Below are positions 978 through 28,063 of a DNA stretch of 64,000 nt, one piece after another (position 1 is the first letter of the stretch; each line of letters opens with the position of its first letter). The notes below the pieces were generated by a model. The model saw only the letters and a program-made list of their open reading frames with translations. It made no database searches and was not told the origin of the DNA. The position numbers and the translations under genes were made by a program. The DNA comes from Patescibacteria group bacterium (GTDB taxonomy: Bacteria > Patescibacteriota > Patescibacteriia > UBA1558 > GWA2-36-10): assembly GCA_018819405.1 (NCBI GenBank), contig JAHJQF010000001.1, positions 162,097 to 226,096 on the forward strand, read 5' to 3'.

Positions 978-1146
978 AACTATATTATTTATTTTGTCCC
1001 CAAAAAATTTTGTAAATTTCTAACGGGGTTTATAAATTATAATTTATATATAGCCTACTATAAAAATATATAACTTTGGTAAATAAAAAACAAGCTATAA
1101 TCCGGGCAACACACAAGTGGATTAGAGCTTGTTTTAAAAAGCAAAA

Positions 1147-1458
1147 TTATTTTTTTTCTTCGTTTTTTTGGCTAACAGCGGGAGTTGGTTTTGCTCCAGA
1201 CTTTTTGATCATCTTGGCAAATCTTACTTTTTTACGGTCAGCTGTGTTAGCTTTCAAGATGCCAGCTCTGACGGCCTTATCAACTGTTTTCTGCAGCTTG
1301 TGAGTAAGCTCACCAGCTTTTTTATCAATTTCACCGGCGGCAACTGCCTTTTGTCCGCTCTTGATAATTTCTTTGATACTTCTTTTAACCAAAGAATTAC
1401 GCTCAGTGCGCTTCTTGGTCTGTTTCAAGTGTTTTTCCTGTGCTTTACGATTTGGCAT
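1147..1458 (-). CDS. rpsT: 30S ribosomal protein S20
   Basis: A 103-aa, Lys/Arg-rich protein. The 'AQEKHLKQTKKRTERN...IDKKAGELTHKLQKTVDKAVRAGILKANTADRKK' layout matches S20. Confidence 0.85.
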   Translation of the reverse strand: MPNRKAQEKHLKQTKKRTERNSLVKRSIKEIIKSGQKAVAAGEIDKKAGELTHKLQKTVDKAVRAGILKANTADRKKVRFAKMIKKSGAKPTPAVSQKNEEKK

Positions 1459-1579
1459 AGCCCGTTAGAAATTAATTGTCTTTATTGTTGCCCCATCCGT
1501 AGAGAAATACTAGTATTTCTAAAGGGCATAAATATTTATCTTCTTAAGTTAAGACTTGTAAGATATTATCATAAAAATA

Positions 1580-2683
1580 CTAGTCCGTCAAGTCTAAGAA
1601 ATATCTATTTAAGCTGTCTATTACATACGGCGGTTCTATACGTTTTTTGGCTAATGTTGGCTTATCTATTTGGTCAAAAACAATAGCCTGGTCCACTGAA
1701 AAATCACCTATTTTATCTCTTCTGAGATCCGCTAAAAGAGCGCCTGTCTTCATAGCTTGGCCCAAATCATCAGCTAGACTACGGATATAAGTACCCACTG
1801 AGCAGCTTACTTCCAGCTTCAAATTTGGATATCTAAAACTTTTTATTTTCAAGTTATAAATTTCTATCTCCTTGGCGGGTCTAGCTACTTCCTTGCCTTG
1901 TCTAGCTAGCTTGTGTAATTTTTGTCCGCCTATTTTTTTGGCACTATAGATAGGGGCTAACTGAATTTGTCTGCCGACGAATTTTTGTAATACTTTTTCC
2001 AATTCATTTTGGGAAAAAGGTTTAGCTTTTTTATTTTGTGTTATTTTACCCTCCAAATCAAATGTATCTGATGTCTGACCAAATAAAATATCAGCTATAT
2101 ATATTTTTGGCCAAAAATGAAACCAATCAAGCAATCTAGTAGCAGAGCCAGTAGCTACTATCAAAAGACCAGAGGCAAGAGGATCAAGCGTGCCGGAAAA
2201 TCCAACTTTTTTTATATTTAAAATTTTTCTAAAAATAGTCACCACATTAAAAGAATTGACGCCTTTCTTTTTATCAACCAGATAAATACCAGTATTTCTA
2301 TCTTCCAAAACTGATCTTAATTTTGAACTTTTAAAAATCTCTGGGCTGACCAGGGGAATAATTTTTTTATTTTTAAAATCCGAAAAAATTTTATGGAGCA
2401 TCAACTGATCCTGACCAAAAACTAAAATATCCGGTTTTAAATCAGTTAAAATTTCTCCAGCGTTTTGCTTGTTTCTAAGATATACTTCAAGACCCAACTT
2501 TTGTAGTTGATTTTTTCGCAAACTTTCTTTGTTGTAGGGTAAATAATTTCTAAACTTGCCAATAGCTTGGTCTGATTCTAATACTACTGTCACCTGCCCT
2601 AATTTCCTAGCAGACCTGATGAGTTCCATATGCCCAGGATGTAATATATCAAATTTACCAAAAATTATAACACGCTTGGCCAT
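1580..2683 (-). CDS. truB: Fusion protein. The N-terminus is an FMN adenylyltransferase-like nucleotidyltransferase domain and the C-terminus is tRNA pseudouridine(55) synthase TruB.
   Basis: The N-terminal 'VIIFGKFDILHPGHMELI' matches the RibF N-domain (H/T)xGH motif. The C-terminus carries the TruB catalytic motif 'GTLDPLASGLLIV' and 'IYSAKKIGGQKLHKLARQG'. Confidence 0.8.
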   Translation of the reverse strand: MAKRVIIFGKFDILHPGHMELIRSARKLGQVTVVLESDQAIGKFRNYLPYNKESLRKNQLQKLGLEVYLRNKQNAGEILTDLKPDILVFGQDQLMLHKIFSDFKNKKIIPLVSPEIFKSSKLRSVLEDRNTGIYLVDKKKGVNSFNVVTIFRKILNIKKVGFSGTLDPLASGLLIVATGSATRLLDWFHFWPKIYIADILFGQTSDTFDLEGKITQNKKAKPFSQNELEKVLQKFVGRQIQLAPIYSAKKIGGQKLHKLARQGKEVARPAKEIEIYNLKIKSFRYPNLKLEVSCSVGTYIRSLADDLGQAMKTGALLADLRRDKIGDFSVDQAIVFDQIDKPTLAKKRIEPPYVIDSLNRYFLDLTD

Positions 2684-2688
2684 AGGTA

Positions 2689-5622
2689 TTATTCTTCCAG
2701 ATTAACTATTATACCAGGCGTGGTAATCAATCTGTCTGAAAGATCTTTGACCACCATAAACAATTTGTATATTCCTGGACCAAGATCTTTATCCCAAACA
2801 ACTGACAAATTATTTTGATAAGGATTTTCAATATAGGTAAACCAATGAGATTGATTTTCCGGATCAAGATAATAAAAATCTATTTTCTTTACTTGAGTTG
2901 GTTGATCAATATTTAATTCCAAAGTATAGGGAGCATTAGATAGTTTGAGATTAGCCCCATTAGCTGGTGAAATCCAAACTAAATTAAATTGTCTATCAGC
3001 GGCATCCAGATTGATGTCTATATTCATAGAAGTTTCTTTGAAATTATCCAGATCATCAAAAGCAATGGCTTTTAGAGCATGCTGTCCGTTGCTAACAAAA
3101 GGATTAACTTGATAATTAAGATTATATGGGGAATCATAAACTTTGCCGACTAGATTGTCATCCAAGAAAAATTCAACTCTGGAGATGCCACGAGGTGCAT
3201 CAGCATCTACCTGCATATTAAATACAGCCTCATTGATATTTTGATTTTGGCTTGGGCTAACCCAAGAAATTGACGGTCTAAGCTCTGGCCTATGAATATC
3301 ATCATATACTGTAGGGGCTCTTTCTGACTCAAAGCCCTGCTCTTCTGCCCAAGCCAGAATAGGACCCTCCCATAGATTGAACTGAGGCTCGTTGTTTGGA
3401 TCGTCAAGCGGGTCGCCCAAGGGATCATTTATATTTACATAATATAAAATACTATGAGTTTCTAAAAAATTCTTTTTTTCTCTGGTGGTATATGGCGTAT
3501 ATTCAGTGGCTAATTTACCACTCATGTTATCAATCTCTACTGGTTCTGCCCCAGACAGCTTACCGCAGACCATTGGTTTGGAGCAGCTATTAAGTTCTTG
3601 TTTTTTAAAATCTTTTACCTCCATACCAGCTGTGACTTCACGCATAAATTTGTTCCAAATTGGCGCAGCTACCACCGAACCGCTGGCTCCCTGTTTCATC
3701 TCAGTATTATTATTGTTGCCCACCCAAACACCCGTGGCAATCTGAGGAGTAAATCCAATAGTCCAAGCATCACGATAATCATTGGTAGTACCAGTCTTAG
3801 CGGCCACTGATCTATCAGGCAAAGTCAGATAATTACTCTCACCAAATACATAAGCTCTAGCAGCATTATCAGATAAAATATCATTGAGCATTCTGACATA
3901 TTCTTTATCAATCACCCTGCGTCCTTTTTCTTCTCCGTTTTCTTCTATAATCTTGCCCTTGGAATCTTTTATTTCCAAAACTGCTATGGTATTTTTATAA
4001 ACTCCTTCTCTGGCAAAAGTGGCATAACCATTGGTATGCTCCAGTAGTTTTACTTCAGCTCCTCCCAACACCAAAGATAAACCATAACGATCAGGATCGG
4101 TCAAAGTAGTATAGCCAAAATCAGCTGCTAAATCTGTTACATTTCTGACCCCGGCTAAATATAAAGCCTTTACTGCCGGGATATTAAGAGACCCCGCCAA
4201 GGCTTGTTTGATACTTACCGGGCCATGTTGTACCTGATCATAGTTACGCGGTTCATATTTGTCCCCTGAAGAGGCAAAATTGGTCAAAACATCATAAAGT
4301 ATAGTATCAGGCCTATACCCCTTTTCAAAAGCTTTTAGATAAACTAAAGGTTTGAGCGAACTACCAGGCTGTCTATCTGAAACGACCACATTTACCTGAC
4401 CATCTATCTCATCATCAAAATAGTTTTTGGAGCCTACCATAGCCAATATTTGAGCACTCTCTGTATCAAGAGAAACTAAGGCCGCATTGGAAGCATTATA
4501 ATTTTCGCTGTTTCTAGGAGCAATTTCATTTATAGCTGCCTCCGCTTTTTGTTGGGCTGACCAATCAAGTGAAGTCTTTATCTCCCAGCCGCTTTGTTGC
4601 ACCAAAGAGGCTCCATATTTTTGTTCCAAAAGTTCACGCACATACATCACAAAATGTGGTGCTTTTATTTGCTCAGCTCTTTTCTTAAATACTAATCCCT
4701 GGTTTTTGGCAGCCTCAGCCTCATCTTTTGTAATGTAACCCTGATCGACCATCAAATCCAAAATATATTGCTGACGACCAGTCAATAAATCACGATTATT
4801 TCCATAGGGTGAATAAAGAGTTGGCGCTTGTGGTAAAGCTGCTAGTATTGCCGCCTCAGCCAAAGTCAACTCTTGAACATGTTTATCAAAATAATATTGT
4901 GAAGCGGCTTCTACTCCATAAACTGCGCCGCCATAGGGTATTTCATTAAAATAAAATTCTAATATTTGGTCTTTGCTGAATTTTTGTTCAAGTCTATATG
5001 ACAAAATCCATTCTTTTATTTTTCTGGATATTTTTCTTTCGTCCGTTAGGATGGCATTTTTGACAAACTGTTGGGTGAGAGTAGATCCTCCCTGAGAACG
5101 TCTGCCTTGTAAGCGAGGGACAATTTGTCCTCGTATAATGCCCCAAACAGAAATACCTTGGTGGTCATAAAAATTTTTGTCCTCCATGGCAATGGTGGCA
5201 TTTTTGACATAGTCTGGAATCTCAGTAATAGATACCTGAGTTCTATTTTCAGCGCCATGTACTTCATAAAGTAAAACCTCGCCGGTCCTGTCATATATTT
5301 TAGTTGACAGTGCTACCGAACGATCAAGTAGCTTGCCCGGTTCTGGTAAATCTCGTGAGTACCAAGCCACCATTCCAATAAATACAATGCCTCCTAGGAA
5401 AATCAGACCCAGTATATGAGGCCAAAACCTCTTAAATAGCTTCCTAATCCAGCCTGAGCCATTAGATTTTTTAGGACCAGAACCCTTTTTATACAAAAAA
5501 CGCCCAGAAAAAACCTTTTTTTTGGCTTTTATACCATCAGTTATAGGCTTGTGAGCAAACTGAGGGATATTGTCACCAATCTTTTTTTTGGTGAAATTTG
5601 ACTGAAAATGTGGTATTGGCAT
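2689..5622 (-). CDS. Class A penicillin-binding protein (bifunctional transglycosylase/transpeptidase, PBP1A family) with a C-terminal extension of about 250 aa
   Basis: N-terminal TM helix. Transglycosylase motifs include 'QGGSTLTQQFVKN', and transpeptidase motifs are SxxK 'GSSLKP' and KTG 'KTGTTND'. The protein is 977 aa. Confidence 0.85.
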   Translation of the reverse strand: MPIPHFQSNFTKKKIGDNIPQFAHKPITDGIKAKKKVFSGRFLYKKGSGPKKSNGSGWIRKLFKRFWPHILGLIFLGGIVFIGMVAWYSRDLPEPGKLLDRSVALSTKIYDRTGEVLLYEVHGAENRTQVSITEIPDYVKNATIAMEDKNFYDHQGISVWGIIRGQIVPRLQGRRSQGGSTLTQQFVKNAILTDERKISRKIKEWILSYRLEQKFSKDQILEFYFNEIPYGGAVYGVEAASQYYFDKHVQELTLAEAAILAALPQAPTLYSPYGNNRDLLTGRQQYILDLMVDQGYITKDEAEAAKNQGLVFKKRAEQIKAPHFVMYVRELLEQKYGASLVQQSGWEIKTSLDWSAQQKAEAAINEIAPRNSENYNASNAALVSLDTESAQILAMVGSKNYFDDEIDGQVNVVVSDRQPGSSLKPLVYLKAFEKGYRPDTILYDVLTNFASSGDKYEPRNYDQVQHGPVSIKQALAGSLNIPAVKALYLAGVRNVTDLAADFGYTTLTDPDRYGLSLVLGGAEVKLLEHTNGYATFAREGVYKNTIAVLEIKDSKGKIIEENGEEKGRRVIDKEYVRMLNDILSDNAARAYVFGESNYLTLPDRSVAAKTGTTNDYRDAWTIGFTPQIATGVWVGNNNNTEMKQGASGSVVAAPIWNKFMREVTAGMEVKDFKKQELNSCSKPMVCGKLSGAEPVEIDNMSGKLATEYTPYTTREKKNFLETHSILYYVNINDPLGDPLDDPNNEPQFNLWEGPILAWAEEQGFESERAPTVYDDIHRPELRPSISWVSPSQNQNINEAVFNMQVDADAPRGISRVEFFLDDNLVGKVYDSPYNLNYQVNPFVSNGQHALKAIAFDDLDNFKETSMNIDINLDAADRQFNLVWISPANGANLKLSNAPYTLELNIDQPTQVKKIDFYYLDPENQSHWFTYIENPYQNNLSVVWDKDLGPGIYKLFMVVKDLSDRLITTPGIIVNLEE

Positions 5623-5952
5623 ATCCCGTTAGAAATTTAAATAATTTTTTAATCTATTTTTTATATATTTTTTACCCATTCCTGATTTTATAAATAACAC
5701 TTGACCAGAGCTATTCTTCTTTATTCTAGCATTAATATCATTACTAAGACCAGTATACCATTTTTTATCTACTAGACTAGACCATATATTGTTTGACTTT
5801 ATTTCTAACGGGACATAGTATTTCAATTATAGCAAAAATAAGCTATAATTTGAATACAAACCCCACACCTTTTTAGAGTTTAATACTCGTATAAAGTATA
5901 TAATAAATCAAAAAAGGTGCTGGGTGAAAGTATTAAAAATGAGAGTAAAAGT

Positions 5953-7149
5953 ATGTCTAAGATTAATACAGATACAGAAAAAATTCAAGAGCTATTGACC
6001 CGTGGGGTTGAGGAAGTGATTGATAAAAACAATTTAGAAAAAAAATTAAGGTCGGGCAAAATGCTCCGCGTTAAACTTGGTATTGATCCCACTAGCCCAA
6101 ATTTGCATCTTGGCCGCGCTATACCATTACTCAAACTAAGAGATTTCCAAGAACTGGGGCATAAAATAGTTTTTATTATTGGTGACTTCACTGGTGTCAT
6201 TGGTGATACCTCCGATAAAGAAAGCGAAAGACCAATGCTGGACGAAAAAACCATCCAGCAAAATATGAAAAATTATGTCAATCAAGTAAAAAAAATACTA
6301 GACATCAAAAAATGCGAAATCCGCTACAACAGCCAGTGGCTGAAAAAATTAAACTACCACAATATCGGTCAGCAAGCTGACATCTTTTCTCTCAATGAAT
6401 TCATCTCCCGAGAAAACATTGCCAAAAGATTAAAAGCCGGCAAACGCATTTCTTTGCGCGAACTTCTTTATCCTCTAATGCAGGGCTATGATTCGGTAGC
6501 TATTAAAGCTGATGTGGAAATAGGCGGCACTGACCAAAGATTCAATCTTTTGGCTGGTAGAGAATTGCAAAGACACTACCAACAAATTCCCCAAGATATC
6601 ATCACCAATCCCCTAATCGCTGGTTTGGACGGTCGCAAAATGAGCTCCAGCTGGGGCAATACCATAAACCTCTTGGACAATGCCAAAGATATGTACGGCA
6701 AAATCATGTCTTTGCGTGATGATTTAATTATTCAATATTTTACGCTATCCACTCGCCTGCCAATGGCTACTATTGATAAATACCAAAAAGAATTGACTGA
6801 GGGGAAAAATCCCCGCGACTATAAAATACAATTGGCCAAAGAAATTGTCGCCTTTTATCATTCCAGCTCAGAAGCGGAAAAAGCCAGTCAGGAATTTATT
6901 AAAATTTTTAGCAAAAAAGAAAAGCCAAGCGATATAGAAGAGTTTGCTATAAGCGCCAGCAAAATCAATCCGGCTGATTTGCTACTGCAAATGAAACTAA
7001 CCAATTCCAAAAGCGATGCCAGGCGCCTGATAGATGGTGGTGGCTTGAAACTAAATGACCAAAAAATAATTTCCTGGAAAAACGATATTACCATAAAATC
7101 CGGAGATATAATTCAGGCCGGCAAAAGGAAATTCGGAAAAGTAAAATAA
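5953..7149 (+). CDS. tyrS: Tyrosyl-tRNA synthetase. The ORF track begins at 5917, but the start is likely 5953.
   Basis: HIGH-like 'NLHLGR', KMSKS-like 'KMSSS', and a C-terminal S4 domain 'DARRLIDGGGLKLNDQKI'. Confidence 0.8.
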   Translation: MSKINTDTEKIQELLTRGVEEVIDKNNLEKKLRSGKMLRVKLGIDPTSPNLHLGRAIPLLKLRDFQELGHKIVFIIGDFTGVIGDTSDKESERPMLDEKTIQQNMKNYVNQVKKILDIKKCEIRYNSQWLKKLNYHNIGQQADIFSLNEFISRENIAKRLKAGKRISLRELLYPLMQGYDSVAIKADVEIGGTDQRFNLLAGRELQRHYQQIPQDIITNPLIAGLDGRKMSSSWGNTINLLDNAKDMYGKIMSLRDDLIIQYFTLSTRLPMATIDKYQKELTEGKNPRDYKIQLAKEIVAFYHSSSEAEKASQEFIKIFSKKEKPSDIEEFAISASKINPADLLLQMKLTNSKSDARRLIDGGGLKLNDQKIISWKNDITIKSGDIIQAGKRKFGKVK

Positions 7150-7176
7150 AAAAGTAATTTTAATATTAACTACATA

Positions 7177-7530
7177 TTGATGACACTATTTAAAAAAAGA
7201 GCCGCTTGGCGCATTGGGCCATTCTGGTTTTTTTGGATAAATATGGGATACCTTTTTGGAAAAATTGAAATTTTAGAAGATAAAATAAAAATTATCATTC
7301 CTTTTAAAACCTACGAAATTAAAAAACAAAATATACTGGCAATAGAGCAAGTAAAAAGTATCAAAGAAAAAGGATTGTATTATCGCCAATTTGGTTACCC
7401 TATGTTTAGAGTGCAACACAATGACCCGAGATACAAAAATATCAAATTTTTCTTTTCCCTCGGCGGTAAAAAAAATACTCAAAAATCACTACTAATGGCC
7501 TTAAAAAAAGCAAAAATAAAATATACATAA
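7177..7530 (+). CDS. hypothetical small protein (N-terminal hydrophobic segment)
   Basis: An ORF only, AT-rich like the host, with no recognisable motif. Confidence 0.3.
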   Translation: MMTLFKKRAAWRIGPFWFFWINMGYLFGKIEILEDKIKIIIPFKTYEIKKQNILAIEQVKSIKEKGLYYRQFGYPMFRVQHNDPRYKNIKFFFSLGGKKNTQKSLLMALKKAKIKYT

Positions 7531-7621
7531 AAATACAAAAAAAATGAAAAATGGGACAAGAAATAATACTCTTGCCCCACTTTGTTTTTTAGGGACCTCT
7601 TTCCCTTAAAAGGTTATACTA

Positions 7622-8563
7622 CTATTTCAAATCTTTTCTATAAAACTCAGCAGCGTCATCAGGATCTATTGGATTGATGATAAGTCCAGATCCAATCTCC
7701 ACTCCGGCCCAGACTGAACCGCGCGGTACTATTTTCATATAAAGATGTTGGTCATTGTCATTGATGACCTGATGAAAATAAAAATTATAAGGCAAATCAA
7801 GCTGACCAATTTTTATTAAAATATGTTTTAGGATTTTGGCAAATGAATTTCTCTCATCCTTTGTAAGCTCTGTGATATTGTCCCGATGAGCCAGAGGCAT
7901 AATCCAAACTTCATAATTGAACATGGAGGCATACGGGGTAAAGGCTACTACATTTTTATCTCTATAAATAAGCCGCGGCCCTTTTGATTCTTTATGTATT
8001 ACATCACAGTATACGCAGTGTCCGTGCTGAAGTTTATAAGCCTGCTGACGCTGACTTTTATCAAAAATATGTGGTGGTAAAAACTGAGTAGCAAATATCT
8101 GGCTATGAGAGTGCTGCAAACTAGCCCCAGCCACGCCACCATTATTTTTAAAAATCAAAATATATTCTATTTTTTTATCTTTGGAAATGGCTTTGGTCCT
8201 AGCCGCATAAGCTTCCAAAAGATCCGCTATCTGACTTACTGATAAATCCTCCAACTCTAGAGTATGATCAGATGTTTCTATCACTACTTCCTGATGACCG
8301 TAAGCTTTGGGGTTGTCTGTAGAGACTGCTGGATAAATATTTTTTATAATATTTATAGCCCAATCCTCTTTTCCGCCTTTGCGATATAAGCTCTTTACAT
8401 CCTTTAGATTTGACGGACAAAAAATACAACTTGCTTCCAATTTTTTCTTGTGTTCACCTGGACGGACAGTATCATGTGGTCTTTTACCACGCTTGGGAGC
8501 AATAATTACATACTTTTCTTGGATATAGTCTTTCCTTATTTCTGGTTTGGTCATTTTTGACAT
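7622..8563 (-). CDS. GalT-like hexose-1-phosphate nucleotidyltransferase (HIT superfamily; galactose-1-P uridylyltransferase or ADP-glucose phosphorylase type)
   Basis: Cys/His zinc motif 'CIFCP...HGHCVYCD' and active-site HxHxQ 'LQHSHSQIFA'. It is the last gene of the glycogen operon. Confidence 0.65.
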   Translation of the reverse strand: MSKMTKPEIRKDYIQEKYVIIAPKRGKRPHDTVRPGEHKKKLEASCIFCPSNLKDVKSLYRKGGKEDWAINIIKNIYPAVSTDNPKAYGHQEVVIETSDHTLELEDLSVSQIADLLEAYAARTKAISKDKKIEYILIFKNNGGVAGASLQHSHSQIFATQFLPPHIFDKSQRQQAYKLQHGHCVYCDVIHKESKGPRLIYRDKNVVAFTPYASMFNYEVWIMPLAHRDNITELTKDERNSFAKILKHILIKIGQLDLPYNFYFHQVINDNDQHLYMKIVPRGSVWAGVEIGSGLIINPIDPDDAAEFYRKDLK

Positions 8564-8587
8564 AATTATATTGAATTTATTGAAATA

Positions 8588-20233: not shown

Positions 20234-20280
20234 CCCCCGCCTTGTTCTGCAACACAGAACAAGGCGGGGGAATTTTTTTA
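20234..20280. terminator. Bidirectional intrinsic terminator ('cccccgccttgttctg' / 'cagaacaaggcggggg' stem, T tracts on both sides)
   Basis: Perfect 16-bp stem, followed by 'aattttttta' on the plus strand and a T run on the minus strand. It lies between convergent genes. Confidence 0.7.
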
Positions 20281-20295
20281 TATAAATATTTTACA

Positions 20296-20691: not shown

Positions 20692-20757
20692 ATGCAATAT
20701 AAGCTTTAGTAGGTCATCATGATAAATGACCCACTATAGTCTAGACTACATAGGTCG

Positions 20758-21108: not shown

Positions 21109-21192
21109 TTTTTCACCCCCTTTCTATTTTAGAAAAATATTACTTAAAGTATATACTAAAATAGCTTTTTTTTCAACGATTTGTCAATACTT

Positions 21193-21513
21193 TTAAGTAG
21201 TGCCCCGTAAAATGTCAAACACAAAGTTTATGACAATATAACTTAAAAATATTACTACCAAACCTAATATGGCCCAAACAATACTATCCTTGCCTTTTTT
21301 TACTCTCTCAGAGTTACCAGATGAAGTCATCCACAAAATGCCACCCCAGACTAGAAAAAATAAAGCCAAAGCACCCGATATACCAAGTAGGCCTCTGATC
21401 ATTTGTCCAGCTAATTCTGGAATACTGTCAGCACTTAATGGATTTGGTACTTCTACTGCTGCTTTAGCTGATAGTGGTAATAGTAACAACGAAAATAAAA
21501 CTATTTTTTTCAT
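21193..21513 (-). CDS. TrbC/VirB2-like pilin paralog 3
   Basis: Signal peptide and 'WGGILWMTSSGNSERVKKGKD'. Confidence 0.5.
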   Translation of the reverse strand: MKKIVLFSLLLLPLSAKAAVEVPNPLSADSIPELAGQMIRGLLGISGALALFFLVWGGILWMTSSGNSERVKKGKDSIVWAILGLVVIFLSYIVINFVFDILRGTT

Positions 21514-21554
21514 ATCTAATTTTTAATATTTGTTGAATATATAAAATACTAAGG

Positions 21555-22190
21555 TTAGTATATTTTAGAACCATCGGTAGCACAAACCTGTTCACCTGGA
21601 CAGCATGACGTACAACCAGAGACAGCATAAGCACCATTATAATCTTGCGGATTATAATTTTCTGGCAAACAAGCTGTTTTATAATTATTTTTTAGACCAG
21701 CATAAACACATTGTGATATACAAATTTCATTATAAACTACTAACTCTGCTTGCGAAAACGTCCCCGAGCACACCATTAAACTCCCTGGCTCTCCACATGG
21801 AGATCCAGGCCCCTTTCCTTGGCAAGAAATTGTAGTGATACGATATGGTTCTTTAACATTTAAAACCTGATTAACAAAAAAATCCAAAATTAGATAGCCG
21901 CCAAAAGCAACAATAATAGCAAAAATAGTGTTTGTCATTATATCTTTGCCTTTTTTTACTCTCTCAGCATTACCGGATGATATCAACCATTGAACACCTC
22001 CATAAACAAAATAGACCAAAGCTACCGCTCCCATAGCCCCCAACATCAACTTGATCAACAAAAGAAAACCTGTAGCAATATCTTCAAGGCCACAATTTCC
22101 ATATTCTATACATCCTAATCCATCCAAAAATCCCGCCCTGGCTATTAGAGGACTAGTTAAAAAAATTAAGCTAACAAAAAATTTTATCAT
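21555..22190 (-). CDS. TrbC/VirB2-like pilin paralog 4 with a Cys-rich C-terminal extension of about 110 aa
   Basis: 'YGGVQWLISSGNAERVKKGKD' core, followed by a domain with 14 Cys. Its start codon overlaps the upstream SBP stop (ATGA). Confidence 0.5.
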   Translation of the reverse strand: MIKFFVSLIFLTSPLIARAGFLDGLGCIEYGNCGLEDIATGFLLLIKLMLGAMGAVALVYFVYGGVQWLISSGNAERVKKGKDIMTNTIFAIIVAFGGYLILDFFVNQVLNVKEPYRITTISCQGKGPGSPCGEPGSLMVCSGTFSQAELVVYNEICISQCVYAGLKNNYKTACLPENYNPQDYNGAYAVSGCTSCCPGEQVCATDGSKIY

Positions 22191-23560
22191 TGCGGTTCTT
22201 TATATGTTTGATTTATCTGACCAACCAATAAACCTAGGCTTGCGTTTTTATCATCCAAAACATATTCTCCTGATAAAAGCTTGTCAATAAAATCTCCTAA
22301 GTATTGTTCAGCCAGATTAATATTGTAACCTCTATACCAAGTATCAGCAGTCAAAACCTGAGAAGCAAATATTGAAGTATCATAATTAGCAATCTGCTTG
22401 TCAATCAAAGAACGTAAAGCTGTTGGCTTTTTATTTTCAGTTAAATATTTTGATACCAAATCCTCTGAAGCTGTTGTCTGGACAAAATTCCAGGCTGCAT
22501 CCTGATTTTTTGATTTTTTGGCAACCACATTAACCCAAAAATTAGCATAATATTTGGTAATTTCTGCGCCTCTAGTTTGAGGAAAGTTTGTAATACCCCA
22601 ATCAAATTGAGTCTTTCTACGCCTTAATTCATCAGCATGATAACTATAGCCAAAAAAATAAGCTAGTTTGCCACCAGCAAACATCTCAAAGGCATTTTCC
22701 AAATCACTATTCCAGCTATAACTAGCTTTGCCCGGCTTGGCAAAATCTGTATAAAAAGCAAAGGCTTGAGCAAGTCTCTGTGCAGAGTCTTTATCGTCTA
22801 AAGGTGAAAAGGCCGTCTCTGATTTAGCGTTTACCCCATTTTGCATCATGATAGAAGAAAAAATATCAAAAAACCTAGGTATATTATCAGTACCACCAAG
22901 AGCAACTGCTGATTGAATTATTTGATTGCCCTCTGTTGCTTTAGTCAGCTTTGGAGTCTGATCCACTAAATCAAAAAAGTCAGTAATTGGTTCCGCTATA
23001 CCTGCTTTGGTAATCATGTCTAGATTATAAAAAGTAACTAGCGTATCTAATGAATACGGCAAACCATATATTTTTTCATCAACTATTATATTGTCATAAA
23101 CTGCTGGAACATACTTAATCTTTATATCTTGAGGAGACAAGCCGGCAAATTGTCGCATCACTATCACAGTTTCTGATTTTATAGAGCCCTGTATTTCATA
23201 TATTGGAATTTTGTGAGCTGAGGGCATAACTACTATCCTATGTTGATAAGCTTTTATCCAATTGGCTGGAATCGCAAAAATATCCGGTCCTCTGTCATCA
23301 GCCCAAGCTTCCAAAAGCTCGCGTTCGTATTCTTCATAACGAAAACGTCTATAATTTACTTTTACAGTCGGATGGGTTTTTTCATAATCTGCAATCAATG
23401 TTTTCAATTGAGCCTCTGTATCCCAAACACCCCAGTATTCCAAAGTAACCGGCTGGTAAAGCTCCTTATCTGATCGAAAAGGATTCCACTTGCAACCAAA
23501 GCCACTGTTTAAAACAAGGGTAAATAATAATAAAATTGTAAAAATTCTAAACCTTCTCAT
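22187..23560 (-). CDS. Extracellular solute-binding lipoprotein (SBP_bac_1 family, sugar-type), orphan with no permease or ATPase adjacent
   Basis: Lipobox 'NSGFGC'; 'GPDIFAIPANWIKAY' and 'YGLPYSLDTLVTFYNLDM' are typical of family-1 SBPs; 457 aa. Confidence 0.65.
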   Translation of the reverse strand: MRRFRIFTILLLFTLVLNSGFGCKWNPFRSDKELYQPVTLEYWGVWDTEAQLKTLIADYEKTHPTVKVNYRRFRYEEYERELLEAWADDRGPDIFAIPANWIKAYQHRIVVMPSAHKIPIYEIQGSIKSETVIVMRQFAGLSPQDIKIKYVPAVYDNIIVDEKIYGLPYSLDTLVTFYNLDMITKAGIAEPITDFFDLVDQTPKLTKATEGNQIIQSAVALGGTDNIPRFFDIFSSIMMQNGVNAKSETAFSPLDDKDSAQRLAQAFAFYTDFAKPGKASYSWNSDLENAFEMFAGGKLAYFFGYSYHADELRRRKTQFDWGITNFPQTRGAEITKYYANFWVNVVAKKSKNQDAAWNFVQTTASEDLVSKYLTENKKPTALRSLIDKQIANYDTSIFASQVLTADTWYRGYNINLAEQYLGDFIDKLLSGEYVLDDKNASLGLLVGQINQTYKEPQ

Positions 23561-24429
23561 TTTACTTTTTTAAAATAATCTTTCAAAAATTCTCTGAGCT
23601 CTTTTCTTTCCATGGCGTACTCCAGTGTGGCGCGCAATAAATTCAAAGGATCCCCAGTAGTCAGCCACTCTCCATCTTTTATTTCTTTGGCATAAAACTT
23701 TCCGCCGGATTTTATATAATTTCTGATAGCATCAACTATCCATAGTTCGTTGCCTTTTCCCAATCGTGTTTTTTGTAAAACATCGACTATGTCCTGATTC
23801 AAAATCATACGACCAAAATCAGCCAGATTAGAAGGAGCATCTTTGATAGATGGTTTTTCTATAATGTCATTTAGCTGCATTGTCTTTGTGTTTTTCAAAC
23901 TGACAATACCATATCTATCCACCTGATCACGCGGCACTTCTTGAACCCCAATCATCAAATGTCCGGTTTTGTTGTAATCATCTACCATTTGCTTGGCAAA
24001 AGGTATTTTTGATTTTACTAAATCATCACCCCAGACGTACATAAAAGGCTCATCATCAACCAAGCTAGCTGCCGAAAGAACTGGTGTGCCATTACCATAT
24101 GGCCCTTTTTGTCTTATATAAACAAAATTGGCCATTTCTGAGATTTTTTTAACTGCCGCTAGCTTATCTTTTTTTCCGGCTTTGGCCAGTTCATTTTCTA
24201 GAGCCCAAGAATGATCAAAATGATCCTCAAGAGGTTTTTTGTCCCACTTGGTCACAAGTATAATGTCCTCTATGCCAGCTGCCACCAATTCTTCAACTAC
24301 TAGCTGAATAACCGGCTTATCTACTATTGGCAACATTTCCTTGGGCATGGTTTTGGTAGCCGGCAAAAGCCTAGTACCTGATCCAGCTACAGCAACTACA
24401 GCTTTTCGGATTTTTTGATTTTTTTTCAT
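23557..24429 (-). CDS. galU: UTP--glucose-1-phosphate uridylyltransferase
   Basis: 'AVAGSGTRLLPATKTMPKEMLPIVDKPVIQ' is the GalU signature; 290 aa. Confidence 0.85.
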   Translation of the reverse strand: MKKNQKIRKAVVAVAGSGTRLLPATKTMPKEMLPIVDKPVIQLVVEELVAAGIEDIILVTKWDKKPLEDHFDHSWALENELAKAGKKDKLAAVKKISEMANFVYIRQKGPYGNGTPVLSAASLVDDEPFMYVWGDDLVKSKIPFAKQMVDDYNKTGHLMIGVQEVPRDQVDRYGIVSLKNTKTMQLNDIIEKPSIKDAPSNLADFGRMILNQDIVDVLQKTRLGKGNELWIVDAIRNYIKSGGKFYAKEIKDGEWLTTGDPLNLLRATLEYAMERKELREFLKDYFKKVK

Positions 24430-24551
24430 CCCGTTATTATTCTAAAATATTTACAACTATCTTATTTTTTTGTTCCCCGCAAAAAATCGTGAATTTCTGA
24501 CGGGATTAATGCTTTTATTATACTAAAATTTGACCTAAATGTAAATTGTTT

Positions 24552-25247
24552 TTACTTTAAAATAAGGCCTTTGTGTTCAGTAATATGAGCGGAAAAATCC
24601 ATAACTATCTTCAAAAATACCAAAATAATAACTGCTGACATACCAAAACCAAGCGCCGTGGCAAAAAATCCCCCAAAAATAATAGTCAAATGCATAGTTA
24701 CTATTCTTTTATATGGGGCAAACATCTGTTTATTTATGGTGGTCTTTAGATATTCTTGTTTTTTTATAAAATTATAAATATAAGATATGGCGTGACTCAA
24801 AAATAAAAAAGATAAAGATATAAATAGAGTTTTTAAATAAGAAAATACCGTGATAAAAGCCACGTCTGTATATGTCGTCTTTGGCAAATCGGGCTTGAAG
24901 AAAGTAACAATAAAAAATAAATGCCCAAACATAAACATAGAATAATGAATAATAAAAAAAACAATAAAAAATATCTTAGTCGGCTCAGATATTTTATCTG
25001 TTTTACTCTGCCTATTTTTCTTGGTCAAACCAATATCTTTTATATGTTGCATTTTCAAAACATTAAAAAATCCTACGACTGTACTTTCTAGCCAATACAA
25101 AATCAATATTGTGAAAATATCCCAACCAAAAAACAAAACTCCAAAAATAGGAATTAAGTTTACTAAAAACAGAGACAAAACTGTCGGATAAGCCAAATAA
25201 CTAAAATATTTTTTCAAATCCGCCATCTTTTTTATTTTTATAAACAA
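24552..25247 (-). CDS. hypothetical polytopic membrane protein
   Basis: An ORF with about 6 TM helices. It overlaps the upstream gene by roughly 45 nt, so the real start may be the internal Met. Confidence 0.3.
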   Translation of the reverse strand: MFIKIKKMADLKKYFSYLAYPTVLSLFLVNLIPIFGVLFFGWDIFTILILYWLESTVVGFFNVLKMQHIKDIGLTKKNRQSKTDKISEPTKIFFIVFFIIHYSMFMFGHLFFIVTFFKPDLPKTTYTDVAFITVFSYLKTLFISLSFLFLSHAISYIYNFIKKQEYLKTTINKQMFAPYKRIVTMHLTIIFGGFFATALGFGMSAVIILVFLKIVMDFSAHITEHKGLILK

Positions 25248-26502
25248 ATAAACTAAAAGCTAATAGTATAAAAAATAAGATGCTTAAATCATTTTTAAAA
25301 TAGGGTACATCTACCAAACCGTGTATGAACCAAGTAAGCCAGGCCAAGATTAGCGGCCAAGCAAAAATATTTTTATCAGCCAAAATCTTTTTTAAAATAT
25401 AATATATATAAGCCAACAATCCTAAAAATCCAAATAAACCAAGGAGGCCCATTTCTGTCCAAAAATTTAAAAATATATTATGAGGATAAAGATATATTTC
25501 TATCCAATCTATACGGTGATAATTATTCATAGCCACTTGATAGCCATTTAGACCACTACCTAAAACAAAATTATCTTTTAGCATAGCTAGAGTCTCTCGC
25601 CATTGCCAGCTCCTGATTTCCAATGAGCTAATGTCCAGTCCTTTACCTGGTGAAAAAAGTTGATAAAAACTATTTGGTAAAAATAATATAATTACTGATA
25701 GAGCTAGACAAGCTAGTAAGATACCCCATTTTCTTGTTTTTTTGGCTAATATAAGCCATATAAATATAGCTGCTAGCATAGCCAGCATTGCCCCCTCGCT
25801 GACCGCAAAATAAGATAAACTAACTCCCAAAATTCCCAACAATAAATAATGCCAATTGCGCCCCTTATTTTTTATCATTAGCCAGAGAGATAAGAAGAAT
25901 ATTGAGATAGGAGCGCTAATAAGTGCTAAGGCATTAGGATAAGAAAAAACGGCGGTCAGTCTTTTTGCGTGTGGGAAATTATATGCGGCAATATAGTTCC
26001 AGTCTGTAAAATTTTGATACATAGCCACTACAAACAACCAAGCCAATAGTAAGCCTAGCCCATTTATAATAATTTTTATATCTTCTTTATCCTTGACAGT
26101 ATAGATAAAAACCAAAAAAAACATAATTGGCTCCAAAAAATATGCCCGCCAGAGTCCAAGAGCACTATACGTAGGATTTACCAACCAAGCTAAGACGCTA
26201 GCTAAAATCCAAACAGATAAAAGTAGCCTAAGTTTATAAGGAACCTGATTTTCGGATTTCCTTTTTAAGAAAAAATTTATCTTTTTATATCTTTTCTCTT
26301 TTATCAACCAAATTATAAATAACAAAACAATCATTAATTCCAAAAAAGTAGTTGGCATTCCCAAAATATTGAAGCGCCACAAATAACTAGGTAAAAGAGT
26401 TATTATTGCTGCTATTGCCCAGATAGTTTTTTTATAAGCAGTGAAAATAAAAACCAAAAGCGAAGCAGTGAAAATAAAATTTAGTAGCAAATCAATGCTC
26501 AT
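25201..26502 (-). CDS. O-antigen ligase/polymerase-like (Wzy_C-type) membrane protein
   Basis: About 10-12 TM helices with a large periplasmic loop, in a polysaccharide locus next to wzx. Confidence 0.45.
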   Translation of the reverse strand: MSIDLLLNFIFTASLLVFIFTAYKKTIWAIAAIITLLPSYLWRFNILGMPTTFLELMIVLLFIIWLIKEKRYKKINFFLKRKSENQVPYKLRLLLSVWILASVLAWLVNPTYSALGLWRAYFLEPIMFFLVFIYTVKDKEDIKIIINGLGLLLAWLFVVAMYQNFTDWNYIAAYNFPHAKRLTAVFSYPNALALISAPISIFFLSLWLMIKNKGRNWHYLLLGILGVSLSYFAVSEGAMLAMLAAIFIWLILAKKTRKWGILLACLALSVIILFLPNSFYQLFSPGKGLDISSLEIRSWQWRETLAMLKDNFVLGSGLNGYQVAMNNYHRIDWIEIYLYPHNIFLNFWTEMGLLGLFGFLGLLAYIYYILKKILADKNIFAWPLILAWLTWFIHGLVDVPYFKNDLSILFFILLAFSLFVYKNKKDGGFEKIF

Positions 26503-27927
26503 TTATTTTTTATTAAATATTTCTTTAATAAGCGACTGATTGATTGCTTTAGTAAAAAATAAAACCAAGATATAAATTAAACCGGCAAGGATTGTCACTA
26601 GTATAATATTTTTATCCTCTAGCAAGCTAGCTACAAAAGAAGCAATGACTGCTGCTATGATACTTTTTATTAATACTTTGAAATTTAAATTAAGCGAAAC
26701 ATTCTTTTTTACTACCACAAAAGCAAAGACGACTATCAAAATCTCCACCAACAAAGTCATATACGCTGCTCCCCAATAAGAAAAACGGGGGATAAGGGTA
26801 AAATAACCCAAAATTCCTATGCCAGCTGTAATCAAAAAATATTTGACCATCTGCTTTTGCAAATTAAGAGCTACTACTAAATAAGTAAATAATGTTCCAA
26901 AAAATATAGCAGCTGTCGCTATTATCAAAATATTTAATATTGGCCCAGATTTGACAAATTCTTGCCCCGCCAACAGAGTCATCAATGGGCTGCTAATAAG
27001 CCAGGTGACAAAAATCATAGCCACACTAATAATACTAAAAAAATCAAAACTATGTTGTAGACTATTTTTTAATTTTTCTTTATTCTGAGTCACCCAAGCG
27101 GCTGTAAAAATGGGCAATATAAGACTCATAAACATATGGGGAAAAGTAGATAAAACTTCCAAAACTCTATAAGGCGCTCCATATATAGCTACATCTTCTG
27201 GGCTGTGATAAGCTGATAAAATTAAAGTATCAGCCTTGAAATAAACCAAATTCAATACCACTGTAATAGCTAGTGGCCAAGTACGATGAAATACCTGCTT
27301 CCAATATACAAAATCCCAAGCCAGTTGTAGACTCACATATTTTTTCAAAAATACCAAAAGTAAAATAAAAGCCGTGCCTTGTGTAATCACATTAAAAAAT
27401 AATATTTGATTGAGGTTGCCGGAAGTTTTAAAAAGATAAATCAAGGCTAAAGCGTATAGTGTTTTATTGACCAAATCTGTAATAGCTACTTTTGGCATAG
27501 CCAAATTTTTGGAAAAAACCGCGGTCAAAGTAGAAATTATACTTTGGAAAAAATAACAAAACATAAAAATAGTTACACCTATTTTTACTTCTTTAGTATA
27601 AGGGAAAAATTGAACAACCAAGGGTATCAAAATCAAAACCAGAACAGCCGAAACTATTCTGATAGTAAAAATATTATTTACAATTCTATTCTCATCTTTA
27701 CGTTCTTTGGCTGCCGAAATTTCCCTGAGCAAAGTAAGGTAGAGTCCCAGATCCACCAAAATCATAAACATCTGAACAAAAGCAAAAGCAGTGGTATAAT
27801 ATCCAAAACCAGCTTGACCCAATATCCTAGTGATAAGTGCCAAGGACAAAACACCTATAAAAATATTTAAAGCCCTGATAATAACCTGCCACAGGGTATT
27901 TTGAAAAATCTTATTAGCAATCGACAT
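26503..27927 (-). CDS. wzx: Polysaccharide/oligosaccharide flippase (Wzx/MOP superfamily)
   Basis: The N-terminus 'NTLWQVIIRALNIFIGVLSLALITRILGQAGFGYYTTAFAF' is typical of PF01943; about 12-14 TM helices. Confidence 0.6.
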   Translation of the reverse strand: MSIANKIFQNTLWQVIIRALNIFIGVLSLALITRILGQAGFGYYTTAFAFVQMFMILVDLGLYLTLLREISAAKERKDENRIVNNIFTIRIVSAVLVLILIPLVVQFFPYTKEVKIGVTIFMFCYFFQSIISTLTAVFSKNLAMPKVAITDLVNKTLYALALIYLFKTSGNLNQILFFNVITQGTAFILLLVFLKKYVSLQLAWDFVYWKQVFHRTWPLAITVVLNLVYFKADTLILSAYHSPEDVAIYGAPYRVLEVLSTFPHMFMSLILPIFTAAWVTQNKEKLKNSLQHSFDFFSIISVAMIFVTWLISSPLMTLLAGQEFVKSGPILNILIIATAAIFFGTLFTYLVVALNLQKQMVKYFLITAGIGILGYFTLIPRFSYWGAAYMTLLVEILIVVFAFVVVKKNVSLNLNFKVLIKSIIAAVIASFVASLLEDKNIILVTILAGLIYILVLFFTKAINQSLIKEIFNKK

Positions 27928-28063
27928 GCTCCGTTAGAAATATTAAATAATCTATTATATCCCCGATAGAACAGCTTGATTTCTAACGAGGCATATATCA
28001 AATTATACTAATAAAAAGAGCCCCTAGCAAGCTACGAGACTCTTTTGTATAAACAAATTATAA

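Follow-up and report, generated by a model that had tools for sequence, protein, structure and literature searches.

The recurrent motif CCCGTTAGAAAT is very probably the 13-bp terminal inverted repeat (TIR) of a non-autonomous, MITE-like family of mobile elements whose accumulation at start codons would have come about through selection. The copies in the window (the 64,000-nucleotide stretch of patescibacterial DNA analysed here) are insertions, four of them clean and flanked by a 4-bp duplication that contains a start codon. The family is present in many copies in many phyla, and its members are found on start codons, in the reading frame within genes or in intergenic DNA.

Five elements in the window

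With up to one mismatch allowed, CCCGTTAGAAAT matched the window 10 times against 0.24 matches expected, and none of 100 shuffles reached 10. The seven copies described in the initial annotation lie at the coordinates given there. The spacings of its three convergent pairs (42, 164 and 37 bp) are also correct, as are the gaps of 2–3 nt between one arm of each pair and the minus-strand start codon of rpsT (ATG complement at 1456–1458), PBP1A (5620–5622) and a Wzx-like flippase (27925–27927); Pfam confirmed the gene identities (rpsT, class A PBP and wzx). Beyond this list we found two further arm pairs, 951/1016 and 24430/24493. The copies at 1016 and 1461 had been read as inverted repeats flanking rpsT, but the real partner of 1016–1027 is the overlooked arm at 951–962 (CCCCTTAGAAAT), 53 bp away. 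The fifth pair, made up of a degenerate arm at 24430–24441 (CCCGTTATTATT) and an arm at 24493–24504 (CCCGTCAGAAAT), lies immediately next to the start ATG of a gene for an NTP-transferase.

The five elements (P0–P4, all on the minus strand) are about 60–190 bp long, contain no long ORF and are bounded by the 13-bp TIR YCCCGTTAGAAAT ... ATTTCTAACGGGR. P0 (950–1028 with the 13th TIR base included at both ends; arms 951–962 and 1016–1027) precedes and is fused to a DNA-alkylation-repair gene (225–977). The call of this gene starts at an ATG inside the element (975–977, minus strand) and crosses its arm, which is read in frame (..RISKG..), so that the earlier statement that all copies are intergenic holds only loosely. 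Since BLASTP homology to the protein of a relative begins at residue 12 of the product, residues 1–11 (MKNNRISKGAG) derive from P0. No target site duplication (TSD) was recognisable at the P0 site.

P1 (1460–1526) fronts rpsT (1147–1458) and has arms at 1461–1472 and 1515–1526 with one mismatch; the 18-nt palindrome reported at 1503–1520 is present, and through it the 5' arm pairs with an internal copy. The gene-side copy of its TSD (TATG, 1456–1459, minus strand) holds the rpsT start codon, and the other copy lies at 1527–1530. P2 (5624–5813, 190 bp) fronts PBP1A (2689–5622) and has perfect arms (5625–5636 and 5801–5812) and T..A as the 13th base pair. Its gene-side TSD copy (TATG, 5620–5623, minus strand) holds the PBP1A start codon, while the second copy (5814–5817) provides an orphan ATG, after which the sequence reads TCC CGT TAG. 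P3 (27929–27991; arms 27930–27941 and 27979–27990) fronts the Wzx-like flippase gene (26503–27927), with TSD copies at 27925–27928 (CATG) and 27992–27995 (TATG) and an orphan ATG followed by CCT CGT TAG. P4 (24429–24505) fronts the NTP-transferase gene (23557–24429); its 3' arm (24430–24441) is the degenerate one, its 5' arm lies at 24493–24504, and its terminal A doubles as the first base of the NTP-transferase start codon. Its TSD is TGAA (24425–24428), of which the upstream copy TTAA (24506–24509) is a decayed form. P4 and P0 belong to one subfamily. A solo degenerate arm (CCTGTTAGAAAT, 46504–46515, minus strand) inside a hypothetical ORF (46318–46686) could be either the remnant of an element or a coincidental match, and the source genome yielded no further copies in the 7.3 kb (L001) and 5.5 kb (L137) fetched beyond the window.

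Empty sites in related genomes

The element is missing at the orthologous sites of all five window copies in three to four syntenic relatives (64–82% protein identity), and at four of the five sites the comparison reveals clean insertion junctions and a duplicated 4-bp target (TATG or TGAA) that takes in the start codon. The P0 site reads TATAAT-N6-ATG in relative L002, without the element. The empty P1 site in L002 is 'atatttATGccaaatcg', against 'atattTATG[CCCTTTAG..CTAACGGG]cTATGccaaatcg' when filled. The P2 site is empty in L002, L004 and L006 ('gctataattgaaatacTATGccaatac' in L002, against the filled '..gaaatacTATG t[CCCG..CGGG]a TATGccaatac'), and both the P3 site ('ttagTATAATttgatatATGtcagtagcc' in L128) and the P4 site ('tagTATAATaaagtcATGaaaaaa' in L128) are empty in L128 and L129. 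In three relatives (L002+L128, L004+L129 and L006), the syntenic DNA compared, some 110 kb, contained no copy at up to one mismatch, as opposed to five in the window genome. A metagenome scan for a within-species empty site, using the PBP1A promoter joined to the old ATG, gave no matches.

Conservation in related genomes, proposed in the initial annotation as a check, is contradicted by the absence of the element at orthologous sites. Of its three suggestions, that of a miniature palindromic repeat family is the right one.

The family in other genomes

Species-representative genomes were scanned for the arm-pair pattern with a gap of 30–60 nt. Among the matches listed, the pattern was present at at least 120 loci in about 107 assemblies, against a rough estimate of about 17 expected by chance in the whole collection. 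By record title, the hosts of the matches listed were 62 Patescibacteria, 36 Planctomycetota and 22 others, and several genomes had two or three of these matches. The 121 elements among the matches listed measure 55–84 bp between the 12-nt arm ends, a range set partly by the scan gap. The 4 bp outside the 13th base were identical in 67 of 120 listed matches and agreed at three of four positions in 24, whereas shifted controls gave at most three perfect matches; the 13th position itself was complementary in 107 of the 120. The duplicated tetramer varied (TGAA, TATG, TTGA, TTTA and others), and its register relative to the ATG shifted by 3 nt.

Mobility of this kind would call for a putative transposase that acts in trans and cuts loosely TNNA-like sites with a stagger of 4 bp. 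Ends beginning with CC together with a 4-bp duplication would presumably fit the IS1380 or IS701 families. Neither the window ORFs checked nor about 1 Mb of fetched loci contained an autonomous partner or a transposase gene bounded by such ends; in all fetched loci, no real arm pair lay 260–4000 bp apart, and none more than 300 bp apart enclosed an ORF. The near-perfect conservation of the 13-bp ends across phyla is unusual among insertion-sequence ends and counts against the MITE-family explanation.

Start codons and reading frames

Among the matches listed, 47 of the 121 elements (range 45–47) have an ATG or GTG at offset 0 that opens an ORF of at least 60 codons, while 30 copies lie inside ORFs and 39 elsewhere. 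The reported adjacency to start codons is accordingly real and highly non-random. A simple dispersed repeat had been expected to lie at random relative to genes, but this one is dispersed and yet non-randomly placed. At these junctions the terminal purine of the element and the duplicated TG rebuild an ATG or GTG. An in-frame upstream ATG accompanied only 1 of 28 ATG junctions but 16 of 19 GTG junctions (Fisher p=1e-8; among the matches listed). The genes behind the start-junction copies are functionally unrelated housekeeping genes.

The elements also seem well suited to being read through. Of the 121, 71 have a length that is a multiple of 3 (p=1e-8), with 57, 60, 63 and 66 bp as the dominant lengths among the matches listed, and the arms are without stop codon in two of the three frames. 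Among the same matches, 22 elements are open in frame within long ORFs, as PVRN..ISNG or PLEI..FLTG, and the ORFs carrying in-frame copies include homologues of GatB, GlyRS, RfbB, Mur-ligase, HypE and ComM. Alignment of GatB and GlyRS to solved structures showed clean insertions of about 22 residues.

These properties bear on the idea of an RNA-level intervening sequence, in which the stem and the flanking direct repeats would let the element be excised from the transcript or skipped by the ribosome, its content being kept out of the protein. The stem does juxtapose the two 4-nt repeats, and the orphan AUG with its early stop in P2 and P3 recalls the take-off and landing arrangement of phage T4 gene 60. 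Splicing or bypass would, however, lift the constraints on length and stop codons, yet both are observed as strongly 3-periodic lengths and as ORF-internal copies open in frame, and the GTG-junction copies keep an in-frame upstream ATG. We therefore find this idea highly improbable.

How the start-codon copies accumulated can be explained in two ways. In gene-dense genomes, purifying selection would retain only those insertions that leave the gene expressible, and we infer that the pile-up at start codons results from this filtering. Alternatively, the same mobile family might integrate in a targeted manner, in one orientation, at leaderless starts, with a transposition machinery that recognises where transcription or translation begins, thereby delivering a portable leader or N-terminal module. 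Several observations point in this direction: the sharp peak of 45–47 elements at offset 0 among the matches listed; a TATAAT-like hexamer that precedes the old ATG by 5–9 nt in 18 of 45 cases, compared with 60 of the 595 starts used as controls (p=7e-7); an internal CGGGR box that, in the start-junction copies among the matches listed, is sense in 24 and antisense in none; enrichment of internal ATGs in the ISNG frame (46 against 32.2±5.3); and SD-like tetramers inside the elements, 16 sense against 5 antisense. Moreover, NTP-transferase starts were hit independently in two lineages, and the same, orthologous start codon in two Saccharibacteria species bears an 81-bp element that is 100% identical between them although the flanks are only about 80% identical, for which simple neutral persistence is an insufficient explanation. 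Targeting is nevertheless rather unlikely in our judgement: at least eight insertions lie at ATGA stop/start overlaps, which are operon-internal starts and not transcription starts, the ORF-internal and other copies noted above are numerous, and neither the duplicated tetramer nor its register to the ATG is constant. By rough estimate, a TNNA preference combined with purifying selection could give a similar ratio of start to ORF copies.

The fixed 24:0 orientation at start junctions is not predicted by random insertion of a symmetric-ended element without added selection. Tentatively, we also entertain the possibility of a specialised 'gene-start transposon', which would integrate preferentially and in one orientation at first codons, often leaderless ones whose AUG is also the point where transcription begins, would have translation-proof ends and subfamilies with their own AUG and a short N-terminal M-x(3-8)-ISNG module, and would have spread through compact genomes and across phyla.

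Transcription and RNA folding

Promoter scans located a host -10 box (TATAAT, 1036–1041, minus strand) just outside the 5' arm of P0 and equivalent minus-strand boxes at 5826–5831 (P2, with TG), 24517–24522 (P4) and 28002–28007 (P3). These boxes are conserved in the empty sites of the relatives, where they lie 6–9 nt upstream of the ATG, which suggests a leaderless-type arrangement at the original P0, PBP1A, NTP-transferase and wzx sites; the rpsT site (P1) has no TATAAT box of this kind. Since the host promoters lie outside the element, both arms are expected in the mRNA, where they are predicted to pair just upstream of the AUG. For P0, P2 and P3, the fold of minimum energy is predicted to be the long-range arm stem, and the predicted accessibility of arm and start codon is low (about 0.19 unpaired), so that folding agrees with the earlier proposal that pairing buries the region just upstream of the AUG.

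Burial of these nucleotides and transcription of both arms from upstream promoters would also be expected of a host-evolved, shared cis-regulatory RNA. In that case, a hairpin in the 5' UTR would keep ribosomes from loading on the genes of a regulon (rpsT, PBP1A, wzx and others) until a common factor or signal opened it. That the motif arose in this way is very unlikely and already largely refuted: the orthologous sites are empty in relatives at 64–82% protein identity, target duplications flank the elements, mismatches between the window arms show no compensation (U.C in P1, G.G in P0 and C.A in P3), copies are found within coding regions and before unrelated genes, and no Rfam family matched at the elements. 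The candidate class of structured cis-regulatory RNAs was rejected on the same points of orthologous conservation, compensatory changes and Rfam match. For these reasons, the shared translational control element and the binding site for an RNA-binding protein or transcription factor put forward in the initial annotation are unsupported as the source of the motif.

The inverted repeats lie beside promoters of envelope genes (PBP1A, wzx and NTP-transferase), as they might if they were paired operators for a DNA-binding regulator or bounded an invertible, phase-variable promoter at cell-surface genes. We consider this barely credible, as the host -35/-10 elements lie outside and not between the repeats, the neighbourhood checked contains no recombinase or regulator gene, and the same element occurs in frame in GatB and GlyRS and before rpsT, dnaA, aaRS and other genes, besides having TSDs and empty sites. 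Spacers of 37–53 bp are, in addition, very short for site-specific inversion.

If the elements are mobile insertions filtered by selection, the host promoters would now transcribe through them and give a leader whose ends can form a 12–13-bp stem beside the rebuilt AUG. In P1, P2 and P3, our best guess is that translation begins at the orphan AUG kept near the 5' end of the leader; translation of the resulting mini-ORF (3 codons in P2 and P3, 15 codons in P1) would melt the stem and permit initiation at the rebuilt AUG. In P0, the AUG within the element would be used and the arm translated as part of a new N-terminus. The low predicted accessibility of arm and start codon weighs against this explanation. 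Read-through of uORFs to the arm TAA or the junction was seen in 15 of 33 cases against about 7.5 expected from shuffles, which is suggestive only.

Other roles for parts of the element were considered and not upheld. That the internal CGGGR box acts as an anti-sequestor and keeps the AUG open is not supported (equilibrium unpaired probability 0.189 native and 0.185 inverted, p=0.13). The arm, at 0–3 nt from the AUG, is too close for a Shine-Dalgarno role, and taken as a -10/-35 element at the leaderless position it is a poor match to TATAAT; both readings were dropped given the empty sites. As an ECF-sigma promoter (CGTT) it has no GAAC-type -35 upstream. Counts of -10-like hexamers (28 sense and 31 antisense) showed no strand bias and lent no support to an internal promoter, although this test is a weak one.

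Comparison with known elements

The family is kin to MITEs as a kind, and no description of it was found in the searchable literature: searches with the arm sequence returned only unrelated primers and similar matches, and topical searches found no such element described. It shares with generic prokaryotic MITEs (MITEAba12, RUP and Nezha) a small size, TIRs, a TSD of fixed length, dispersed multiple copies with presence or absence between relatives, and no transposase gene. Those MITEs are, however, usually lineage-specific and have a recognisable parent IS, whereas here the ends are near-invariant across phyla, no parent was found in the loci searched, and the ends look shaped for coding, with two open frames and a start-completing terminal purine. 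A review of MITEs nowhere mentions start codons.

Rickettsia palindromic elements (RPEs) are short palindromic mobile repeats that lie in frame in functional genes and are translated as extra segments (Ogata et al. 2000, via PMC10969869 and PMC3733652), and the present family is likewise inserted in frame in functional genes. RPEs, however, are about 100–150 bp long and essentially confined to Rickettsia, whereas the elements here measure 55–84 bp in the scan and 63–190 bp in the window, end in a defined TIR of 13 bp, create a TSD of 4 bp and range over Patescibacteria, Planctomycetota and further phyla. Among the matches listed, about 40% of the copies are placed right on a start codon, which they rebuild. 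The family is set apart from RPEs by its hosts and, against what PMC10969869 reports of RPEs, by size and end structure.

The Correia/NEMIS elements of Neisseria are MITEs with inverted-repeat ends that lie just upstream of genes and are co-transcribed with them (PMC10969869). Inverted-repeat ends and a position before genes are common to both families, but Correia elements show no sequence resemblance to CCCGTTAGAAAT. They have TIRs of about 26 bp and a TA duplication, are restricted to their genus, and exert their effects through promoters of their own, IHF sites and cleavage by RNase III. To our knowledge, they have no known cognate transposase and have not been described as rebuilding start codons or being read in frame.

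REP/REPIN sequences, which RAYT transposases mobilise, are 20–40-bp palindromes with a GTAG or CGTC tag and no target duplication (PMC3733652). They were rejected as a match, the elements here having no such tag at their ends, a 4-bp TSD and no RAYT-like gene among the ORFs checked. Integron attC sites have the core order RYYYAAC ... GTTRRRY, gene cassettes and an adjacent integrase; here the order is the reverse (GTTAGAA ... TTCTAAC), with neither cassette arrays nor an integrase nearby. An analogy in principle, without homology, is offered by the introner-like elements of eukaryotic algae and fungi, transposons with TIRs and TSDs that recreate splice sites and are then spliced out. In both cases the ends and the target duplication recreate a signal that neutralises the insertion and makes life inside genes possible, but here a start codon is rebuilt or a frame kept open, and the element is apparently translated.

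Significance

Patescibacteria have genomes of roughly 1 Mb with almost no spare DNA and little room for mobile elements. Rebuilding a start codon or keeping a frame open would be one way for a transposon to persist in such a compact genome. The consequences for the host would be new 5' leaders, new N-termini, ATG starts turned into GTG, and insertions of about 20 residues in essential enzymes (GatB and GlyRS), and gene callers are liable to misplace start sites at the elements. If insertion truly targets gene starts, the family would match, among bacteria, elements that target start sites, such as Ty3, and might be put to use as a tool. It may also serve as a marker for horizontal exchange among very distant phyla. 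Copies were present in seven stretches of viral contigs, about five of them genuine, which are too few to name phages as the vector.

Paired copies of the motif in the window

A search of the window with the 12-mer CCCGTTAGAAAT and its complement gave ten matches with at most one mismatch, against 0.24 expected. The seven copies listed in the initial annotation were all present where it had placed them, and its arm spacings (42, 164 and 37 bp), its 2–3 nt gaps to minus-strand start codons and, as judged by Pfam, its downstream genes (ribosomal protein S20, a class A PBP and a Wzx-type flippase) were correct. It had also described the copies at 1016 and 1461 as inverted repeats flanking rpsT, but the partner of 1016–1027 is located at 951–962, and the two therefore form no pair around this gene. 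A fifth pair, which had been missed, consists of a degenerate arm at 24430–24441 and an arm at 24493–24504, and directly adjoins an NTP-transferase gene at its ATG. Each pair delimits an element facing a minus-strand gene: P0 (950–1028), P1 (1460–1526, rpsT), P2 (5624–5813, PBP1A), P3 (27929–27991, wzx) and P4 (24429–24505, NTP-transferase). A solo arm-like sequence, CCTGTTAGAAAT, at 46504–46515 on the minus strand within a hypothetical ORF (46318–46686), has a weak partner about 10 nt off; it could be the remnant of a small copy or have arisen by chance.

The window elements are insertions at start codons

The window was compared with syntenic loci from relatives, namely L002/L128 (82% PBP and 78% Wzx identity) and L004/L129 and L006 (~70% PBP identity). 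Gene order is kept in these loci, and the element is absent from every orthologous site. For rpsT (P1) the empty site in the relative, atatttATGccaaatcg, is filled in the window as atattTATG[CCCTTTAGAAAT..ATTTCTAACGGG]cTATGccaaatcg; for PBP1A (P2), gctataattgaaatacTATGccaatac is filled as ..gaaatacTATG-t[CCCGTTAGAAAT..164 nt..ATTTCTAACGGG]a-TATGccaatac; for wzx (P3), ttagTATAATttgatatATGtcag as ..ttgataTATGc[CTCG..CGGA]gCATGtcg; and for the NTP-transferase (P4), tagTATAATaaagtcATGaaaaaa as ..aaaagcATTAAt[CCCG..CGGG]ATGaaaaaa. The empty and filled states at these four sites therefore identify P1–P4 as clean insertions with a 4-bp target-site duplication (TSD), TATG or TGAA, which includes the start codon. 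The upstream TSD copy of P4 is now TTAA, a decayed form of TGAA. For P0 a duplication was no longer recognisable in the comparison with the relative. The P0 gene is called from an ATG within the element, and in BLASTP its product shows homology to the relative's protein only from residue 12 onward, so residues 1–11 (MKNNRISKGAG) are encoded by P0 and its arm. No copy at one mismatch or less occurred in ~110 kb of syntenic sequence from the relatives.

Distribution and anatomy of the family

Scanning one genome per species (GTDB representatives) with the pattern CGTTAGAAAT-N30-60-ATTTCTAACG gave at least 120 loci in ~107 assemblies, against a rough estimate of ~17 by chance in the whole collection. 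By record title, the matches listed comprise 62 from Patescibacteria (many classes), 36 from Planctomycetota and 22 others (Omnitrophota, Elusimicrobia, WOR-3, KSB1, Stahlbacteria, proteobacterial labels and unlabelled records). The composition of the flanks and of the inner sequence follows the host, being AT-rich in Patescibacteria and GC-rich in Planctomycetota, so the family is not one contaminant. Viral contigs in IMG/VR gave seven stretches, about five of them genuine. One fetched locus (L113, ~4700–4960) carries nested or adjacent copies with the variant arms CCCGTTAGAGAC, CCCGTTAGAAGT and CCCGTTAGAGGT; the family thus extends beyond the scanned pattern, with CCCGTTAGA as its conserved core.

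The anatomy was determined on the 121 elements among the matches listed, of which 120 were used for the end and TSD counts. The repeat is 13 bp long, the base beyond the 12-mer being C..G in 71 of the 120 and T..A in 36. The adjoining 4 bp on both sides were identical in 67/120 and agreed at three of four positions in 24/120, and no more than three perfect matches were obtained when the windows were moved by 1–3 nt. The duplicated tetramers are mostly TNNA (TGAA/TTCA 30, TTTA/TAAA 11, TTGA/TCAA 7). The length is divisible by three in 71/121 (p=1e-8), and elements of the short class measure 57, 60, 63 or 66 bp, with few between. The arms account for the frame behaviour of the elements: the 5' arm is open as CCC GTT AGA AAT and C CCG TTA GAA AT, with TAG in the third frame only, and the 3' arm as ATT TCT AAC GGG and A TTT CTA ACG GG, with TAA in the third frame only. 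Because the ends are inverted repeats, two frames are open on both strands. Many copies also contain an internal CGGGR box, which repeats part of the 3' end and is able to form a local pairing with the 5' arm.

In one subfamily a small hairpin lies inside the element beside the 3' arm (L069, L077, L093, L097 and L114) or the 5' arm (L049 and L104). Its stem is compensatory between copies (GGAAATGC/GCATTTCC, GAAAGTC/GACTTTC, GGAAATC/GATTTCC and GAAAATGC/GCATTTTC), which hints that an internal structure has been conserved or that the element has another binding site.

Position relative to genes

Among the matches listed, 47 of the 121 elements have an ATG (28) or GTG (19) directly after the 3' arm that opens an ORF of at least 60 codons, and the histogram of offsets has one sharp peak, at 0. 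The start codon at this junction is chimeric, its first base being the terminal purine of the element and its TG coming from the duplicated TGAA, and the upstream flank is mostly still ATGAAY, the old start. No common function links the genes downstream of these copies (pyruvate kinase, FtsW, DNA ligase, LeuRS, SMC, MurJ, CorA, DnaA and others). The remaining elements lie within ORFs (30), give a stop codon to an incoming ORF through the arm TAG (5) or are found elsewhere (39). Inside ORFs the element reads as PVRN..ISNG or PLEI..FLTG, and its host genes include GatB, GlyRS, RfbB, Mur ligase, HypE and ComM. Alignment to solved structures showed a clean insertion of ~22 residues in GatB, where query residues 370 and 393 are placed on one and the same residue, 367, of 3h0l_B, and likewise in GlyRS relative to 8u2q_A.

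Signatures of selection are seen at gene starts. The two kinds of start junction differ in what precedes them: among the matches listed, 27 of the 28 ATG junctions are without an in-frame upstream ATG, whereas 16 of the 19 GTG junctions have one (Fisher p=1e-8). Ten of the latter ATGs are inside the element (M-x3-8-ISNG-V..), five are the old ATG read through and one is farther upstream. There is a modest enrichment of internal ATGs that are open in the ISNG frame (46 versus 32.2±5.3 in shuffles, no shuffle giving 46); the same comparison showed no enrichment in the FLTG frame.

In a longer member (L060, ~1263–1400), MITKISKRG is encoded by an internal ATG together with the 3' arm, which has gained 1 nt, and FTLIELLVV follows; this arm appears to have been turned into part of a prepilin-type leader peptide. 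The start codons of NTP-transferases (UDP-glucose pyrophosphorylase-like) were hit by unrelated subfamilies in two different Patescibacteria lineages, in L008 (1309–1383) and in the window (24429–24505), and closer relatives of the window genome are without the element there; gene starts of this one kind thus seem to have been entered independently.

Transcription and translation through the elements

Promoter scans revealed promoter-like sites with a perfect TATAAT 8–12 nt outside the 5' arm of P0, P2, P3 and P4, and these are the same boxes that stand 6–9 nt before the ATG in the empty sites of the relatives. Transcription should therefore start around the old ATG and traverse the whole element, and both arms would lie in the transcribed leader. 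The strand asymmetry of the element, a weak test, gave no support for an internal promoter. In the predicted minimum-energy folds the long-range stem forms in P0 (z=-3.3), P2 (z=-2.8) and P3 (z=-2.1), whereas a local 5' hairpin is preferred in P1 and P4. Across the 47 start-junction elements among the matches listed, arm and start codon are predicted to be only ~19% unpaired. The idea that a stem buries the start region, raised in the initial annotation, holds as a structural point in predicted folds, but as a by-product of transposon ends.

The orphan AUG, the upstream duplicate of the start codon, opens mini-ORFs of three codons in P2 (AUG UCC CGU UAG) and P3 (AUG CCU CGU UAG) and of 15 codons in P1. 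A ribosome starting there, at or near the transcript 5' end, would pull the stem apart, which could make the rebuilt AUG accessible. In the wider set of listed matches, uORFs reaching the arm TAA (4 nt before the junction), overlapping the junction or fusing in frame were found in 15/33 cases against ~7.5 expected, a suggestive excess.

Several genes of the relatives have (TAG)TATAAT 6–9 nt before the ATG and no Shine-Dalgarno (SD) sequence (empty sites in L002, L128 and L129), with window counterparts of the box at 5826–5831, 24517–24522 and 28002–28007. As read from the DNA, the arrangement is of the leaderless type, and it is conserved between species. An SD is also lacking from many further window genes.

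Selection or targeting

By a rough estimate, a TNNA preference combined with purifying selection in gene-dense genomes could account for how the copies are divided among start junctions, in-frame positions and intergenic DNA. Targeted insertion at start codons seems to us the less likely reading but a live one, and several observations point to a site preference or a function. The orientation of start-junction copies is fixed, with the CGGGR box on the gene strand in 24 and on the opposite strand in none; SD-like tetramers numbered 16 sense versus 5 antisense. A TATAAT-like hexamer occurs 5–9 nt before the old ATG in 18/45 cases, compared with 60/595 for the remaining ORF starts of these loci (p=7e-7), and leaderless-type genes are therefore over-represented among the hosts. 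Furthermore, two Saccharibacteria species representatives (L069 3931–4011 and L097 3492–3572) have at one shared start codon an 81-bp element that is 100% identical between them, amid flanks that are only 79–81% identical over 400 bp on either side. On the other hand, at least eight insertions fall on ATGA stop/start overlaps, where transcription does not begin.

Comparison with known systems

Structurally the element is a MITE in every respect but one, a known parent insertion sequence, which would be bounded by YCCCGTTAGAAAT. Neither the window ORFs checked nor the DNA between any distant arm pair contained a transposase or recombinase gene, and Rfam gave no family match at the elements, at gathering thresholds or at E<=1. 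A REP/RAYT repeat was ruled out by the lack of a GTAG or CGTC tag and the presence of a TSD, an attC site by the reversed core order, and an inverton by promoters lying outside the repeats.

The element shares apparent translation inside genes with Rickettsia palindromic elements, and placement at gene fronts and predicted co-transcription with Correia elements (PMC10969869, PMC3733652). It differs from both in its cross-phylum spread with near-invariant ends, the openness of these ends in two frames, the terminal purine that rebuilds a start codon, and the ~40% of copies, among the matches listed, that sit exactly on start codons. The searchable literature yielded no description of the arm sequence or the start-codon phenomenon, and the family is of clear interest for work on mobile DNA and on Patescibacteria genomes.

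Other features of the window

The window has a GC content of ~36%. It contains dnaN (46691–47791, minus strand) and rnpA (49842–50222, plus strand), and between them a 460-aa ORF (48089–49471, minus strand) that may be dnaA. The GC skew changes sign at ~48–50 kb, where gene orientation diverges, and 46691–50222 is probably the replication origin region. The TruB pseudouridine synthase (1580–2683) has an N-terminal cytidylyltransferase-like domain (Pfam CTP_transf_like, residues 7–95), a fusion that is kept in the relatives. Finally, a 21-nt inverted repeat (5860–5925, 81% complementary, 24 nt apart) lies just upstream of the GTG at which tyrosyl-tRNA synthetase is called to start, and overlaps it. 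This repeat is unrelated to the element and could form a leader structure.
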